A stretch of 64,000 bases of DNA, from assembly GCA_963796685.1 (NCBI GenBank), contig CAWCMR010000025.1, positions 576,001 through 640,000 of the forward strand. Reading direction: 5' to 3'. Position 1 is the first letter of the stretch. Every line of letters begins with the position of its first letter. The DNA is from an uncultured delta proteobacterium (GTDB lineage Bacteria; Myxococcota_A; Polyangia; Fen-1088). A program made the translations under genes and the position numbers. This document shows, piece after piece, positions 37,878-48,211 of this stretch. The notes beneath the pieces were generated by a model. It saw only the letters and a program-made list of their open reading frames with translations. It made no database searches and was not told where the DNA came from.

Positions 37878-39632
37878 TCAACGAACGAAGCGCTCGAAGT
37901 AGCGCGCGAGCTGTTTGACGGCGGTCCCCCGGTCGGCCTGCAGTCGCGCCGCGGTCTGCGAAGCGAAGGACGACATCGCCTCCTCGTCCATCGGCTCCGA
38001 ATCGCCGCCCGAATTGCCGAGATGGAAGAAGAGCAGCGGCTTGAGGTACTTCTCGTTCCACTCCTTCTGGTCGTCCCAGCTCCTTGGCTCGTGACCGTGG
38101 TCTTCGAAGAAGGCCTCGACAGCCTTGACGGCGAGATCGGCCCACTGGGGGCGCGCCGAGTCGTCGCTGTCCACGGTCGTCGGCGCGGGCGGTGCCCGCA
38201 AGGCGCCTGCCTGCAGAGCCTGCTTGCAGCTCTCCGGATCGATCGACCCGTGGGTCGCGTCGCGCGGGAGCCGCAGCCCGAAGTTCATCAGCTCGCGGAA
38301 ATTCCCCTCCCAGGCGTGATTCTGAAGCACCTTGAGCGCGTCCGCGGTGAGCGCGTCGCGCGCAGAGGTACCTGGGTTGAGGCGCGTGTTCTCCAAGCAG
38401 GCGAGCACGTCTTCCCAGCGCGAGCGCAGCGAGGGCACCTCGACGACGTAGACCGACAGTCGGTACCACAGATCGACCCGAAAATTCCCTGCCCGCGTGG
38501 CCGCACGCAGATCGCGGTTGGTCGCGGCCACGACGCGGACATCGGCGCTGCGGGCGCGACCCGATTCGCCGACGCGCTCGTACTCTCGGCGGTCGAGAAA
38601 GCGCAGGACCATGGCCTGCACGTCAATCGGCAGCTCTCCGATCTCGTCGAGGAACAGCGTGCCTCCCTGCGCCCGCTCGACGGCCCCGACGATCCGCCGC
38701 GTGGCGCCCGTGAACGATCCCGGTTCGGCCCCGAACAGCTCCGAGCGAAGCAGCTCCTTGCTGAAGGTGGAGCAGTTCGTGGTGACCAAGGGGCCGCTTC
38801 GACCCGACTCCCGATGGAAGACCTCGGCCAGCACCTCTTTTCCGGCCCCCGATGGCCCCATCAAAAGCAGCGTCTTCGCATCCCTTTGCGCGGCTTCGAC
38901 GACGTCGCGATGGGCTTTCCGAATTGCGCGCGAGGCCAGGATCATGCCTTCGTTGCGCGTATTCTCCTCCGACTCGAAAAGCGAATTCTGGCGACCGACC
39001 CAGCGCCAGACGTGCTCCAGTGTCCCCGCCCAGGTCGCGTCGGCGGTCGCGAGAGCGACGACGTCGAGCACCGCGCCGTTGGCGAGAGGGATCTGGCTCG
39101 GAGAGTGGTTCGTCGCGGGGTCGTCGTCTCGAACCATCACGCGCGCGTCCACCTCGCGGACGGAGAGCCAGTCCTCGATCGATCGCGCGATGGCCGGGGC
39201 GAAGTCGTGACGATCGTGCCAGACCGGCGGCTCAGGGTCATCCGCGCGCAGGAGGTTGGCCTTGGCCTTCCCGAGCTGCAGCACGACATCCGAATCGCCG
39301 ACGTCGATGGGACGGTCCTTGGGAAGCAAGAGCCACGTGCCATTCCGGCTTCCAAGATCCCGGACCTGGGATTGCCCGTCATGGTTCGATACGAGGACAT
39401 GGTTGGCGGACACGCTCGGGGACAGGATGCGCACCGGATCGATGGGCGGCGACTGGTCGCCGCCCGGGATCCCCGGCGCGTGCGCATCAGGGTTCCGCCC
39501 CAAAAGAAAGGCCCGCGCCGGCTCGAGCTCGGCCGCGTACGCCGCATGTCCTTCGGGTGCAAGAACGGTCAATCGCGTCACGAACGGTGCCTCCTTGGCG
39601 GCATCGTAGACCACCTCGCACGGATTCGGCAA
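37878..39632 (-). CDS. FHA-domain sigma54-dependent activator (bEBP)
   Basis: [74 protein letters not shown]. Confidence 0.9.
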
Positions 39633-39668
39633 TCTGTCTGCCTTCGGCTACCACGACCGTCGGCGCGA

Positions 39669-41036
39669 CTACTCCGGCCCGTTCTCCCCACCCCGTTTGC
39701 GCCCACCCCGTTTGCGGATGTAGGCTTCGCGCAGCACCGCGGCTCGCAGCTGTGCCTTCCCCTCTCGAAAACCGCAGCTCACGGCGAATCCCTCCATGTC
39801 CGGAGGCATCGCGCACCCTCGGCAGGCTTCGAAGTACCATTGCCAAAGCTCGGCCTCGGACATTCCGACATCGGCAAGGGAGGGCGTGACAAGACCGGCA
39901 TCGCGCAACTTTTGGGCCTTGTGCTCCACCTTTTGCAGCCAGCGGCCGTACTGCCCGGTTCCGCGCAGATAGTCCACCAGGTGGTTGCGGGCAATGCCTT
40001 CTTTGATGGGCCAGGCCCAGCTCAGCCTGGCTTCCGTCTCGAAGAAGTGTCGGTACTCGTCGTCCTCCAGCTGCTGGGCCGTACACCAGCGCTCGAAATC
40101 GTCGCGACTGCGCAGACCGCGGCGGAACCGGAACTCGGAACGAGCGCGTTGCACGACGGCGGCGTCGGGATGGGCTCCCGCCCGCATCGCCAATTCGAGC
40201 GCCAACCCGCGCGCAGCTGCGCCGTCGACCGCGCCTTCGTAGGCTCCGGCCAGCTTGAGCTCTTCTTCGAGCAGGGCATCCCCCGAGAGCGTTGGACCGA
40301 GGTCGGAGCCCTCCTCTGCCAGGACCATCCGCGTGGCCTCGTGCCACGAATCGGTGGGTTCGAAGCGGAAGGTGACCTGCTTGCGTGGCGGATCGCCGGC
40401 TGCCCATTCCCGTAGATAGGTGAGCAGTGCGATCGCGTCGTCTCGCTTCTGGTCCACCTTGCCGAGGGCAAGCCAGTCGCCGAGAGCTTCAACCTCGACT
40501 CCTCTCGCTGCCGCTTGCTTCAACAAGCCTGCGAAGCTGCGCCCCGCGTAGAACTGCCGCTTGGCCACCTCGAGCAAGGCGGCCTCGGTGGCTTGCGCGA
40601 TCACCTTCGCGCGCACGGCCGCGCGCAGCGACGCGCGGATGTTGACCAGGGCGTCCGAAAGTACCCGAAACTCGCCCTCCGCCGGAGCGTGCGCGACCGC
40701 AACCTCGTCGTCGTCCTCGAGCGTGCCGTCGCGGAACGCTTCGTAGACGGCACCAACGCCAACCATGCCGAAGGCATCGAGCTCTGCGGCGCGAAGCGCG
40801 CCCATGCTGCTCGCCCCGAACACATGGACGCCCTCGCTCATCGCCCAAAGAATCTCCTTGTGCCAAACCGCCGGCACCCGCTCGAAGTACCCGTCGATGA
40901 TGGCGATCGCCTCTCGCCCTTGCATGACGGCGCGGTACACGTCCCCAAACTTGGCCGGTCCAGACACGTCGGCGTCGACGATTTCGCGAACCGCCCGAGC
41001 TGCGAGCGTCGGCCCGACGAAGACGAGGAATCTCAC
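39669..41036 (-). CDS. tfuA: TfuA-like protein with C-terminal helical extension
   Basis: GTG start overlapping the ycaO stop (GTGA); VFVGPTL, IIDGYF..PAVWHKEIL, GASSMGALRAAEL..GMVGVG, DDDEVAV.H, DQKRDDA. Confidence 0.92.
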   Translation of the reverse strand: MRFLVFVGPTLAARAVREIVDADVSGPAKFGDVYRAVMQGREAIAIIDGYFERVPAVWHKEILWAMSEGVHVFGASSMGALRAAELDAFGMVGVGAVYEAFRDGTLEDDDEVAVAHAPAEGEFRVLSDALVNIRASLRAAVRAKVIAQATEAALLEVAKRQFYAGRSFAGLLKQAAARGVEVEALGDWLALGKVDQKRDDAIALLTYLREWAAGDPPRKQVTFRFEPTDSWHEATRMVLAEEGSDLGPTLSGDALLEEELKLAGAYEGAVDGAAARGLALELAMRAGAHPDAAVVQRARSEFRFRRGLRSRDDFERWCTAQQLEDDEYRHFFETEARLSWAWPIKEGIARNHLVDYLRGTGQYGRWLQKVEHKAQKLRDAGLVTPSLADVGMSEAELWQWYFEACRGCAMPPDMEGFAVSCGFREGKAQLRAAVLREAYIRKRGGRKRGGENGPE

Positions 41037-47376: not shown

Positions 47377-47447
47377 GGCCGGTCATTGTCGTCGCCGGTC
47401 TTTTACCCAGCAAGAGAAAAGCGAGGCTGGCGAGCGCCCCCTGCCCC

Positions 47448-47756
47448 TTATCGGGTGCCGCCCGATGTGCCACGCGATGTGCCGCCTGCAATGGCCAGAA
47501 CCAGGGTGAGCACGTCGCCGTCGCGCACGCCCACCGCTTGACACGGCCCCAAGGCGCGGACGTTCTCGCTACCCACGAACACGTTGACGAAGCTGCGAAG
47601 GCGCCCCTGGTCGTCGAACAGTTGACGGCGCAAGTCGTTGCTCCGGTCGGCCAGTGCGGCAAGCGCGCCGGACACGTTGTCCGCGGCGACTTCGATTCTC
47701 TCGCTGCCATCCACGAAACGCCGAAGAGGCGTGGGGATGAGGATGGTCACGGGCAT
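47448..47756 (-). CDS. MoaD/ThiS/CysO-family ubiquitin-like sulfur carrier with C-terminal extension
   Basis: MPVTILIPTPLRRF..GRLRSFVNVFV..DGDVLTLVLAIAGG followed by TSRGTSGGTR*. Confidence 0.88.
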   Translation of the reverse strand: MPVTILIPTPLRRFVDGSERIEVAADNVSGALAALADRSNDLRRQLFDDQGRLRSFVNVFVGSENVRALGPCQAVGVRDGDVLTLVLAIAGGTSRGTSGGTR

Positions 47757-48211
47757 GACGGGACCTGCCCCGCGAACGGGTTGAAAGCGCGAGCCGGCTC
47801 CGCGCGAGCACGGCGAAAGGCCCCTCCCTGGCCGGTCAACGTGAACAGGCCCAAGTCCACCGCGCGTGCCTTCGCCACGGAGCAGATGATGTAGAGGTAG
47901 CCTGGCCACGCTTGCGCACGGTCGCAGTCCGACGGCAGGGCTTCACAATCGGGATGGCTGTGATAGTAGCCCACCACGTCTTCACCCGCTTCCCGGGCCT
48001 GGCGTTCGGCGGACAACTGAAATTCCGGCGCGACGAGGTAACGGCAACGCGGATCATCGTCGTCATTACGGGCCGCGATTGACCGTGTGACGTGCCAGGG
48101 CACACGTTCCCCATTTCCCCGACCGAGCAGCACCCCACAGGCCTCGAGCGGATAGGCTGCTTCGCAAAGGCCGGAAATCTGCGCCCGTATGGCCTCGGAG
48201 AGTCGGACCAC
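47747..48211 (-). CDS. M67/JAB (Mec-like) metallopeptidase
   Basis: AYPLEACGVLLG, VVGYYHSHPDCEALPSDCD (JAMM motif), YLYIICSV. Start GTG 48211, or ATG 48376. Confidence 0.88.
   Translation of the reverse strand: MVRLSEAIRAQISGLCEAAYPLEACGVLLGRGNGERVPWHVTRSIAARNDDDDPRCRYLVAPEFQLSAERQAREAGEDVVGYYHSHPDCEALPSDCDRAQAWPGYLYIICSVAKARAVDLGLFTLTGQGGAFRRARAEPARAFNPFAGQVPSCP

Follow-up and report, generated by a model that had tools for sequence, protein, structure and literature searches.

We analyzed 64,000 nucleotides of DNA (hereafter, the window; about 66% G+C) from an uncultured delta proteobacterium of the GTDB lineage Myxococcota_A; Polyangia; Fen-1088 (contig CAWCMR010000025.1 of assembly GCA_963796685.1). 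The host genome is a metagenome-assembled genome of 7.3 Mb (88.6% complete, 6.5% contaminated). Within the window, eight open reading frames (ORFs) on the minus strand span positions 37878–48376, and they include adjacent genes for YcaO and TfuA. We propose that this block carries out regulated thioamidation of the backbone of p200, a protein from an unnamed family that is encoded just upstream of YcaO, with its neighbor p244 as a partner. We give this proposal an even chance of being correct. A preliminary description of the same DNA had listed these eight genes; ORF calls, together with domain scans against Pfam and NCBIfam, confirm that they are real and that their coordinates were right. 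In the direction of transcription, they are:

47747..48376, minus strand: JAB/JAMM metallopeptidase (Prok-JAB, 80 bits); the likely start is the GTG at 48211, which is where the preliminary description ended
47448..47756, minus strand: ThiS/MoaD/SAMP-like beta-grasp carrier, 102 amino acids, with Gly-Gly at residues 91–92 and then a tail of 10 amino acids
43891..47376, minus strand: Ser/Thr kinase of the STAND type, 1161 amino acids (Pkinase, 135 bits; AAA_16, 83.5 bits; TPR)
42901..43635, minus strand: p244, 244 amino acids, unnamed family, a tandem ferredoxin-like protein (dimeric alpha/beta barrel) by predicted structure
42283..42885, minus strand: p200, 200 amino acids, unnamed family with no Pfam or NCBIfam match, directly upstream of ycaO
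41033..42259, minus strand: YcaO, ATP-dependent activator of backbone amides (Pfam PF02624, 249 bits, covering positions 1–325 of the 325 in the profile)
39669..41036, minus strand: TfuA, long form, 455 amino acids (PF07812, 163 bits), predicted to deliver sulfide from a thiocarboxylated carrier
37878..39632, minus strand: FHA-domain sigma-54 enhancer-binding protein (bEBP; Sigma54_activat PF00158, 181 bits; FHA, 25.8 bits)

The genes for p244, p200, YcaO, TfuA, and the bEBP are separated by 15, 23, -4, and 36 nt. (tfuA is directly downstream of ycaO, and its GTG start overlaps the TGA stop of ycaO.) With intergenic gaps of at most 36 nt, there is no room for a concealed short precursor peptide. 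The only larger intergenic gap, of 255 nt between the kinase gene and p244, carries the putative promoter. In the intergenic gaps of the block, we found no canonical short leader-core precursor of a peptide that is ribosomally made and modified after translation (RiPP) beside the modifying enzyme. Pfam scans of the block and its flanks (29.7–52.2 kb of the window) found no transporter, no peptidase for a precursor, and no exporter. The preliminary description had already remarked on the lack of a short precursor and of a transporter, and the gap sizes and these scans bear it out.

Across all eight genes, the ratio of nonsynonymous to synonymous substitution rates (dN/dS, by the Nei-Gojobori method against two genomes from the same genus) is 0.11–0.36, so all eight are constrained coding genes under purifying selection. 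p200 and p244 evolve faster than the block's enzymes.

YcaO and TfuA

YcaO activates backbone amides with ATP, and YcaO proteins that are linked to TfuA make thioamides. The translation of the window's ycaO contains a motif of the ExxERD type (CELAERDA), and ycaO and tfuA are each present in a single copy in the genome. Among NCBIfam models, the best match for YcaO is the YcaO for thioamidation of the McrA glycine (equivalogs TIGR03266 / NF033432), with 226.8 bits against a cutoff of 365. Similarly, TfuA scores 212.5 bits against ThioGly_TfuA_rel, whose cutoff is 235.2. NCBIfam's YcaO_for_S12 model scores just 17 bits on this YcaO. Judging by these comparisons, the pair resembles the McrA-type family in its expected mode of action and is not a member of it. 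The C-terminal extension of TfuA leads, in the ESM Atlas, solely to other TfuA proteins of about 450 amino acids (score 0.76), so the long form of TfuA seems to be ordinary. (A 590-amino-acid "YcaO fusion," P0201, turned out to join a fragment of YcaO to an unrelated beta-propeller. It probably derives from a chimeric contig and was left unused.) According to a 2026 paper, thioamide-forming YcaO proteins from non-sulfidic habitats tend to use ThiS homologues and TfuA (PMC13063428). (Papers are cited here by their PMC accession, and statements taken from them reflect portions of each paper.)

p244 and p200, two unnamed families

p244 has no match in Pfam or NCBIfam, and we found just 23 homologues among 5.8 billion proteins. 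Its structural model (predicted local distance difference test score, or pLDDT, of 87.3) consists of two ferredoxin-like halves. Its fold matches, according to Foldseek, are tandem ABM monooxygenases and the chlorite dismutase / HemQ group. The preliminary description had called p244 NIPSNAP-like, which is correct at the level of the fold only: by sequence, none of 22 family members match the NIPSNAP models at E ≤ 10. The family has no invariant histidine or cysteine, and its invariant positions are mainly tryptophan, tyrosine, or charged residues. Sulfur oxygenase reductases have conserved iron-binding His/His/Glu residues and a catalytic cysteine. We also considered that p244 might be such an enzyme and rejected this, as the family lacks any conserved histidine or cysteine. 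We read p244 as a binding or scaffold protein, or possibly as a cofactor-less enzyme, and not as a metalloenzyme. We predict that it assists p200 as a partner or chaperone, or else works as a tailoring enzyme.

p200 is also single-copy in the genome. A word-indexed search found 31 homologues, and a profile search of 1.84 billion representatives extended the family to 62 representative clusters (E ≤ 1e-3). What these proteins share is a C-terminal module of about 75 amino acids (residues 100–176 of p200). A hidden Markov model (HMM) built from these residues finds one module in p200-type proteins and two to four modules in other relatives. Relatives with a single module and just 105–118 amino acids also exist. 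The residues D103, G145, A149, C161, and L166 are nearly universal, and conservation spans the whole module. Against solved structures, p200 gave only a chance match (E = 0.75); the ESM Atlas had nothing usable, and PADLOC had no match.

The N-terminal half of p200 may be a degenerate copy of the module. By eye, it echoes the C-terminal half (DDLILFF/DAVLSEP/YYVANLARL versus GDLIVFP/GAVLANVP/CILLSLVSL). A 190-amino-acid ORF upstream of YcaO in a more distant locus (L064) shows two module-like units, again by eye. These motifs and this ORF are the reasons for reading p200 as a two-module protein. Statistical comparisons did not detect an internal repeat: hhalign of the N-terminal against the C-terminal half gave a probability of 1%, and the module HMM matched the N-terminal half with an independent E-value of 800. 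No tandem repeat was found in the DNA of the p200 gene either. So, of the earlier label of "200-aa repeat protein," what survives is that the C-terminal module recurs two to four times in relatives; within p200 itself, no repeat is detectable.

One natural fusion joins the two families. The metagenomic protein P0091 fuses a p244-like part (34% identity over 180 residues, E = 1e-24) to a p200-like part. An ORF in the distant locus L065 is a possible second fusion, and its p244-like part is not significant. Structure prediction for a complex of YcaO, p244, and p200, with p200 as the partner, scored 0.00 in a run without controls. We consider p200 to be our best candidate for the substrate of thioamidation, and most likely the substrate.

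Conservation of gene order, and distribution

We examined 20 loci with a homologue of p244: the window, L017, and L026–L043. (Among the loci discussed here, L018 corresponds to L026; L019, L031, and L039 are nearly identical to each other, as are L028, L042, and L043.) Comparisons by tblastn show that p200 follows p244 in all 20 loci. YcaO comes next in all 12 loci that are long enough, followed by TfuA in 10 of 10. The STAND kinase precedes p244 in all 15 loci whose upstream sequence reaches 150 nt or more, and the bEBP is present in all 10 loci that are long enough. The bEBP gene lies downstream of tfuA in seven loci (counting L019, which lacks p244), and it is divergent and upstream of the kinase gene in L028, L042, and L043. 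The grouping of these genes exceeds chance, and their order recurs in independent genomes and in metagenome contigs.

The preliminary description had treated the JAB, carrier, and kinase genes alike as parts of the YcaO cluster. For the kinase, this holds across the YcaO clade, as besides the 15 loci it lies beside YcaO in four more distant loci (L021, L063, L064, and L065). JAB and the carrier co-occur with YcaO in the close clade only.

Beyond the block, gene content differs even within the genus. For the window's flanking genes (Lhr, NmrA, RluA, and orf347), the 20-kb loci of two genomes from the same genus (G001 and G002) contain no counterpart. Because the stretch from JAB to a small kinase gene beyond the bEBP gene is kept while the flanks differ, the unit of inheritance is approximately 35740–48376. 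The window's YcaO is present in 4 of 13 genomes from the genus. The profile of p200 matches in 3 of 89 genomes from the family, all of them from the genus, and in none of 400 other genomes sampled from the phylum. Conversely, when we compared a Corallococcus module protein (P0110) to 400 genomes from the phylum, the window's p200 was the only match. A listing of sequencing runs showed just two, both of soil DNA with small shares of matching words, and no RNA run. Given this sparse distribution of p200 and YcaO, the block is a narrow and patchy accessory trait. In L043, which belongs to a clade with 62% identity, a DDE transposase gene (1864–3570, plus strand) lies upstream of the divergent bEBP gene; such a neighbor would fit a mobile block.

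Three distant genomes, from other families of the phylum, have loci (L063, L064, and L065) that combine a STAND kinase, a module-like ORF, and YcaO-TfuA, with YcaO 43–51% identical to the window's. The module HMM matches these ORFs with E = 2e-6 (L063), 0.003 (L064), and 0.02 (L065), and L064 also has a p244-like ORF (E = 2e-8). In L063 (G100:C31), an acyl-CoA-dehydrogenase-like gene and one for an S8/S53 peptidase of the pro-kumamolisin type are found at 11608–14431, between the kinase gene and a single-module ORF of 113 amino acids. Another distant locus, L021 (G021:C2, 7911–17117), has YcaO-TfuA, an extracytoplasmic function (ECF) sigma factor, a STAND kinase with 31% identity to that of the window, an FHA protein that stands alone, and a divergent ORF of 220 amino acids that matches no family. 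It may be an analogous kinase-gated system with different cargo.

Contig sizes offer indirect support for co-location. For 11 of 20 further representatives of the p200 family, the size of the contig in nucleotides is exactly that of a contig with a YcaO from the window's clade (for instance 24,618, 15,215, 14,236, and 2,782 nt). P0113, a protein with three modules, and the YcaO P0232 are both on contigs of 7,375 nt, and two module proteins from Corallococcus macrosporus and the YcaO P0202 are on contigs of 1,092,671 nt. Equal sizes suggest that the two genes lie together, by way of size rather than by direct reading of the contigs.

Could the target of YcaO-TfuA instead be encoded elsewhere, such as a housekeeping protein, with p244 and p200 as an adaptor, chaperone, or regulator? 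McrA and uL16 are encoded apart from their YcaO in many genomes (PMC5589413, PMC13063428), and p244 folds well. However, p244 and p200 are linked to the YcaO clade over a wide divergence, and the narrow, patchy distribution suits accessory cargo better than a housekeeping target. We consider a remote target to be quite improbable.

We also considered that the product is a RiPP. In this scenario, p200 or the ~75-amino-acid module would be an unusually large structured precursor, thioamidated and then cut and exported by the products of genes elsewhere, and p244 would act in tailoring as an ABM-type oxygenase or cyclase, as its fold matches would allow. The single-module relatives of 105–118 amino acids and the relatives with two to four modules do resemble single-core and multi-core precursors, and p200 and p244 evolve more rapidly than the enzymes. 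In L063, the module ORF is directly upstream of YcaO-TfuA, with the peptidase and the flavoenzyme between it and the kinase; these two genes are the chief argument for a RiPP. Furthermore, YcaO-TfuA loci of the same class carry precursors of the Nif11 type. On the other hand, neither the window nor the scanned flanks of L037 and L042/L043 contain a peptidase for such a precursor, a transporter, or an immunity gene. By eye, p200 lacks a signal peptide, and its C-terminal tail is basic. Conservation runs over the full length of the module instead of being split into a leader and a core, and p244 lacks an invariant histidine or cysteine. We think that a RiPP is unlikely.

The Nif11-domain precursors that we saw, of 105–109 amino acids, are encoded directly upstream of YcaO in L024 (4791–5108, minus strand) and L025 (10547–10876, minus strand). 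By their gene content, these two loci look like conventional RiPP clusters, distinct from the window's system.

A putative sulfur relay that is truncated in the window

The JAB gene runs into the start of the carrier gene. Its translation has an intact JAMM motif, HSHPDCEALPSDCD (HSH...S..D, of the H-x-H...S-x-x-D type), and it scores 88 bits against NCBIfam's desampylase, which is below the cutoff for that model. We predict that JAB trims the carrier after its Gly-Gly. The carrier gene ends 71 nt before the kinase gene, on the same strand. The carrier and JAB are presumably similar to QbsD/QbsE and CysO/Mec.

Relatives suggest how the carrier would be charged. In L018 (from genome G001), the gene directly after JAB encodes a protein of 477 amino acids whose ThiS-like domain runs past AIAGG into a ThiF-type E1 domain and a rhodanese domain. 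L032 has a ThiS-ThiF fusion as well; rhodanese was not detected in the scanned stretch, which ends before the C-terminus of the fusion. In L031, which was not scanned for rhodanese, the ThiS-E1 fusion is shown by DNA alignment only. L037 begins with an ORF for ThiF and rhodanese that is cut by the start of the contig. According to blastn, the window lacks about 1.2 kb of the fusion gene, and the carrier there ends with GG and TSRGTSGGTR. From this alignment, the window's carrier is a remnant of a ThiS-E1-rhodanese fusion gene. L017 (from genome G002) has a 1.13-kb deletion in the fusion gene, and both the end points and the tail differ from those in the window.

The tail after Gly-Gly in the window is encoded by a 12-bp unit, present 2.4 times at 47455–47483, and the tail holds a second GG. 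By its sequence, this repeat looks like a small duplication at the scar of the deletion.

Since the E1-rhodanese part was deleted here, an E1 from the thiamine locus would need to substitute: the sole ThiF-type E1 in the genome is MoeZ-like, has a rhodanese domain, and is encoded next to thiH, about 1.3 Mb away. The genome has three further ThiS genes. The preliminary description had suggested a dedicated sulfur carrier; the ThiS-E1 fusion beside JAB in three relatives agrees with this, and the deletion of the E1-rhodanese part in the window does not.

ThiS, E1-rhodanese, and JAB were described in 2006 by Iyer, Burroughs, and Aravind as a type of three-gene operon that stands alone in many bacteria, and they predicted that JAB cuts fused ThiS/MoaD, which frees the C-terminus for sulfur transfer (PMC1779556). 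We also considered that the JAB and ThiS-like pair is a separate traveling module, which serves some other sulfur transfer or ubiquitin-like tagging and may be decaying here. The stand-alone operons are consistent with this, as is the loss of the E1-rhodanese part in both the window and L017. Also, the JAB gene has the highest dN/dS in the block (0.34–0.36), the pair co-occurs with YcaO only among close relatives (the window, L017, L018, L031, and L032, with YcaO at least 83% identical), and it was not found in the flanks of L042/L043. Against this, the pair lies on the same strand as the kinase gene and 71 nt from it, and it stays within the block while the outer flanks vary among genomes of the same genus. 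Purifying selection still acts on the carrier (dN/dS of 0.26). TfuA uses thiocarboxylates of the ThiS type (PMC13063428), and L025, an unrelated YcaO-TfuA locus of the same class, also has ThiS and E1-rhodanese, along with a pyridoxal phosphate-dependent (PLP) enzyme. We regard a separate module as possible but somewhat unlikely.

Predicted control by a kinase, an FHA protein, and sigma-54

The kinase has HRD, DFG, and APE motifs in its translation, and we predict that it is the signal sensor for the block. The bEBP has a GSFTGA loop (GAFTGA-type), a Walker A motif, and the signature residues of FHA domains. In myxobacteria, Ser/Thr kinases probably drive activators that contain FHA domains. 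The genome has rpoN (C8:341294). The gap between the kinase gene and p244 contains two putative regulatory sites:

43747..43762, minus strand: imperfect palindrome GATTGTGATCGCATTC, a candidate upstream activating sequence (UAS) for the bEBP, which is a conserved island in the intergenic alignment
43687..43702, minus strand: sigma-54 promoter of the -24/-12 type, TGGTCCAGGCCTTGCT (GG-N10-GC), 52 nt upstream of the start codon of p244

An alignment of the intergenic regions from 11 loci has three conserved islands in this 255-nt gap: the palindrome, the GG-N10-GC element, and the Shine-Dalgarno sequence. In this alignment, the first island has the consensus GATTGCGATCGCAATC, whose palindrome is perfect. 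When up to two mismatches are allowed, the palindrome turns up at just four sites in the 7.3-Mb genome, including the site in the window, which points to a very small regulon. In the corresponding place, 14 of 17 loci, some of which are near-duplicates of each other, have a -24/-12 element whose -12 box is of the TTGC type. L027 has a weak version, and L038 and L040 have none within the sequence available. Scans for terminators and for sigma-70 promoters gave matches at or below the level expected by chance. The control by kinase, FHA, and sigma-54 that the preliminary description had put forward is thus supported, as far as sequence can tell, by a conserved promoter and palindrome. The role in signaling or stress response that it also raised is speculative, and its interpretation as a whole is supported in part. 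In the literature, we found no report of YcaO combined in this manner with FHA, sigma-54, or a kinase.

Another explanation is that the block is a conflict or defense system, in which an invader would be detected by the STAND kinase and YcaO-TfuA would arm p200/p244 as the effector. Fusions of STAND NTPases with kinases are common in defense systems, as are JAB domains, and the distribution of the block is patchy, as of a mobile element. PADLOC has matches to the kinase, to JAB, and to the RtcR-like bEBP. However, these are matches to generic catalytic domains only, and no PADLOC model matches p244, p200, YcaO, or TfuA. Nor did Pfam or NCBIfam reveal effector domains of the nuclease, pore-forming, or NADase type. 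A role in defense seems very improbable.

Proposed mechanism

Our account of the mechanism is drawn from genes, sequence comparisons, and what is known of the protein families. The STAND kinase would sense a signal and produce a phosphothreonine, which the bEBP would recognize through its FHA domain. The bEBP would bind the palindrome at 43747–43762 and open the sigma-54 promoter at 43687–43702; both sites are conserved. Transcription of p244-p200-ycaO-tfuA would follow and, given the tight spacing of these genes, would probably take in the bEBP gene as well. As expected from its family, YcaO would use ATP to activate a backbone amide, and TfuA would supply sulfide from the thiocarboxylated ThiS-like carrier. 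The JAB peptidase would free the carrier at its Gly-Gly. In three relatives, the fused E1 of the ThiF type would charge the carrier; here, the MoeZ-like E1 from the thiamine locus would take its place. The most likely substrate is p200, which is always encoded directly upstream of YcaO, and p244 would be its partner.

Several observations weigh against our proposal. YcaO and TfuA both score below the curated cutoffs for the McrA-glycine thioamidation equivalogs. The AlphaFold2 (AF2) model of p200 is poor (pLDDT 55.7). The module calls in L064 and L065 are marginal, with hhalign probabilities of 1–3%. We tried the 220-amino-acid ORF of L021 as a relative of p200 and rejected it, as hhalign gave a probability of 1.4% and the module HMM had no match. 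Distant loci also keep the kinase and change the output: in L064 and L021, an ECF sigma factor gene follows tfuA. Because it replaces the bEBP there, the sigma-54 wiring is clade-specific. In the bEBP, Pfam models (including HTH_8) do not identify a DNA-binding helix-turn-helix (HTH), and a Fis-like stretch near the C-terminus is visible by eye only. The sigma-54 motif by itself is not enriched in the window (5 matches versus 3.0 expected), so the argument for the promoter rests on its conserved position. As for sulfur delivery, the domain scores of the carrier are weak and below the cutoffs (20.5 versus 22.5 bits for Pfam ThiS, and 37 versus 60 for NCBIfam SAMP1), and the E1-rhodanese part of the fusion gene is gone from the window. 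Finally, the flanks in the L042/L043 clade (whose YcaO is 62% identical) turned up neither JAB nor the carrier, so this module is a frequent add-on and not a fixed part of the system.

A bolder version of our proposal is that, after McrA and uL16, the beta-hairpin module protein with its ferredoxin-like partner is a third kind of backbone-thioamidated protein. The STAND kinase, FHA-bEBP, and sigma-54 would turn the operon on when needed, and the co-encoded carrier and JAB, with the fused E1-rhodanese in relatives, would provide TfuA with sulfur. Thioamidation would in that case be a regulated post-translational switch, neither constitutive maturation nor an antibiotic pathway. We offer this tentatively, and we would not yet bet on it.

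Neighboring genes

Two genes beyond the bEBP gene belong to the stretch that is inherited together:

36959..37840, plus strand: F420-dependent NADP oxidoreductase-like gene (F420_oxidored, 83.7 bits), convergent with the operon
35740..36882, minus strand: small Ser/Thr kinase, 380 amino acids (Pkinase, 155 bits), at the far end of the co-inherited block

The gene for the F420-type oxidoreductase is beside the bEBP gene in all six close-clade loci with enough flanking sequence (L017, L018, L019, L031, L037, and L039), at 69–85% identity. The small kinase is kept at 59–75% identity in L017, L018, L019, and L031. The other flanking genes encode an Lhr helicase, an NmrA-like protein, a pseudouridine synthase, and a group II intron reverse transcriptase. 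The helicase is a large Lhr-type protein (29699–34159, plus strand; 1486 amino acids) with DEAD, DEAD_assoc, and Lhr winged-helix domains, and in genomes from the same genus it is not beside the block. About 2 kb past the other end of the block, a 554-amino-acid ORF (50576–52240, minus strand) matches the reverse transcriptase domain RVT_1 (147 bits) and the maturase domain GIIM (57 bits) and is probably a group II intron.

Comparison with known systems

Judged by its sequence, the combination in this block is probably new: predicted YcaO-TfuA thioamidation with co-encoded, protein-sized candidate substrates, a sulfur relay in cis that is truncated here, and gating by a kinase, FHA, and sigma-54.

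Adjacent genes for YcaO and TfuA are also found in clusters for thioamidated RiPPs, such as thioamitides, thiovarsolins, and TfuA-related families from genome mining (PMC8120280; see also PMC6511847). As in these clusters, the candidate substrates evolve faster than the enzymes and have relatives with repeated modules. In contrast to these clusters, the window has no short precursor, protease, or transporter; its candidate has 200 amino acids and comes with a folded partner of 244 amino acids. In the main text of PMC8120280, so far as the portions used here extend, kinase, sigma, JAB, and Myxococc- are unmentioned; its supplementary tables may list this family of clusters.

A YcaO cluster with a large kinase-NTPase neighbor has been described (PMC2887384), and the AAA/TPR part of the window's kinase matches TIGR03903 with 231 bits. 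However, this is far below the cutoff of 705. Also, the window has no cyclase domain, and its YcaO is linked to TfuA instead of being a cyclodehydratase with a docking protein.

The operons with ThiS/MoaD, E1-rhodanese, and JAB (type 4b; PdtFGH in the biosynthesis of quinolobactin and of pyridine-2,6-dithiocarboxylic acid, or PDTC) have the same three parts as the window's relatives (PMC1779556). Unlike in those operons, the module is attached to a YcaO-TfuA operon, and the E1-rhodanese part is deleted in the window. In the relatives, the ThiS-E1 fusion and JAB make up a nearly complete sulfur relay beside the operon. The block and its relatives offer a compact gene set for reconstituting the thioamidation of a protein, including the delivery of sulfur when sulfide is low.

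The archaeal YcaO-TfuA for McrA has the same top curated families as the window's pair, the same overlap of ycaO and tfuA, and, likely, a target the size of a protein. In archaea, the stop of ycaO overlaps the start of tfuA, and genes for a sulfur carrier and an E1 are nearby (PMC5589413). In contrast, the window is from a myxobacterium without methyl-coenzyme M reductase (MCR), and the scores are below the cutoffs (227 versus 365 and 212.5 versus 235.2). The candidate substrates here are co-operonic, unnamed proteins, and there is apparent gating by a kinase, an FHA-bEBP, and sigma-54. This wiring, with an identifiable enhancer site, can be tested part by part. Relatives of YcaO and of the module protein are found in cultured Corallococcus macrosporus and Archangium violaceum, so genetics is feasible.

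Escherichia coli YcaO, which acts on uL16, is another YcaO that acts on an intact protein (PMC13063428). Unlike the window's YcaO, the uL16 clade has neither TfuA nor a linked gene for its substrate. Besides uL16, MCR is the only other characterized thioamidated protein, according to the portions of PMC13063428 cited here. For both of these proteins, the substrate was found the hard way. Here, the candidate substrates, from two new families that are still unnamed, sit in the operon.

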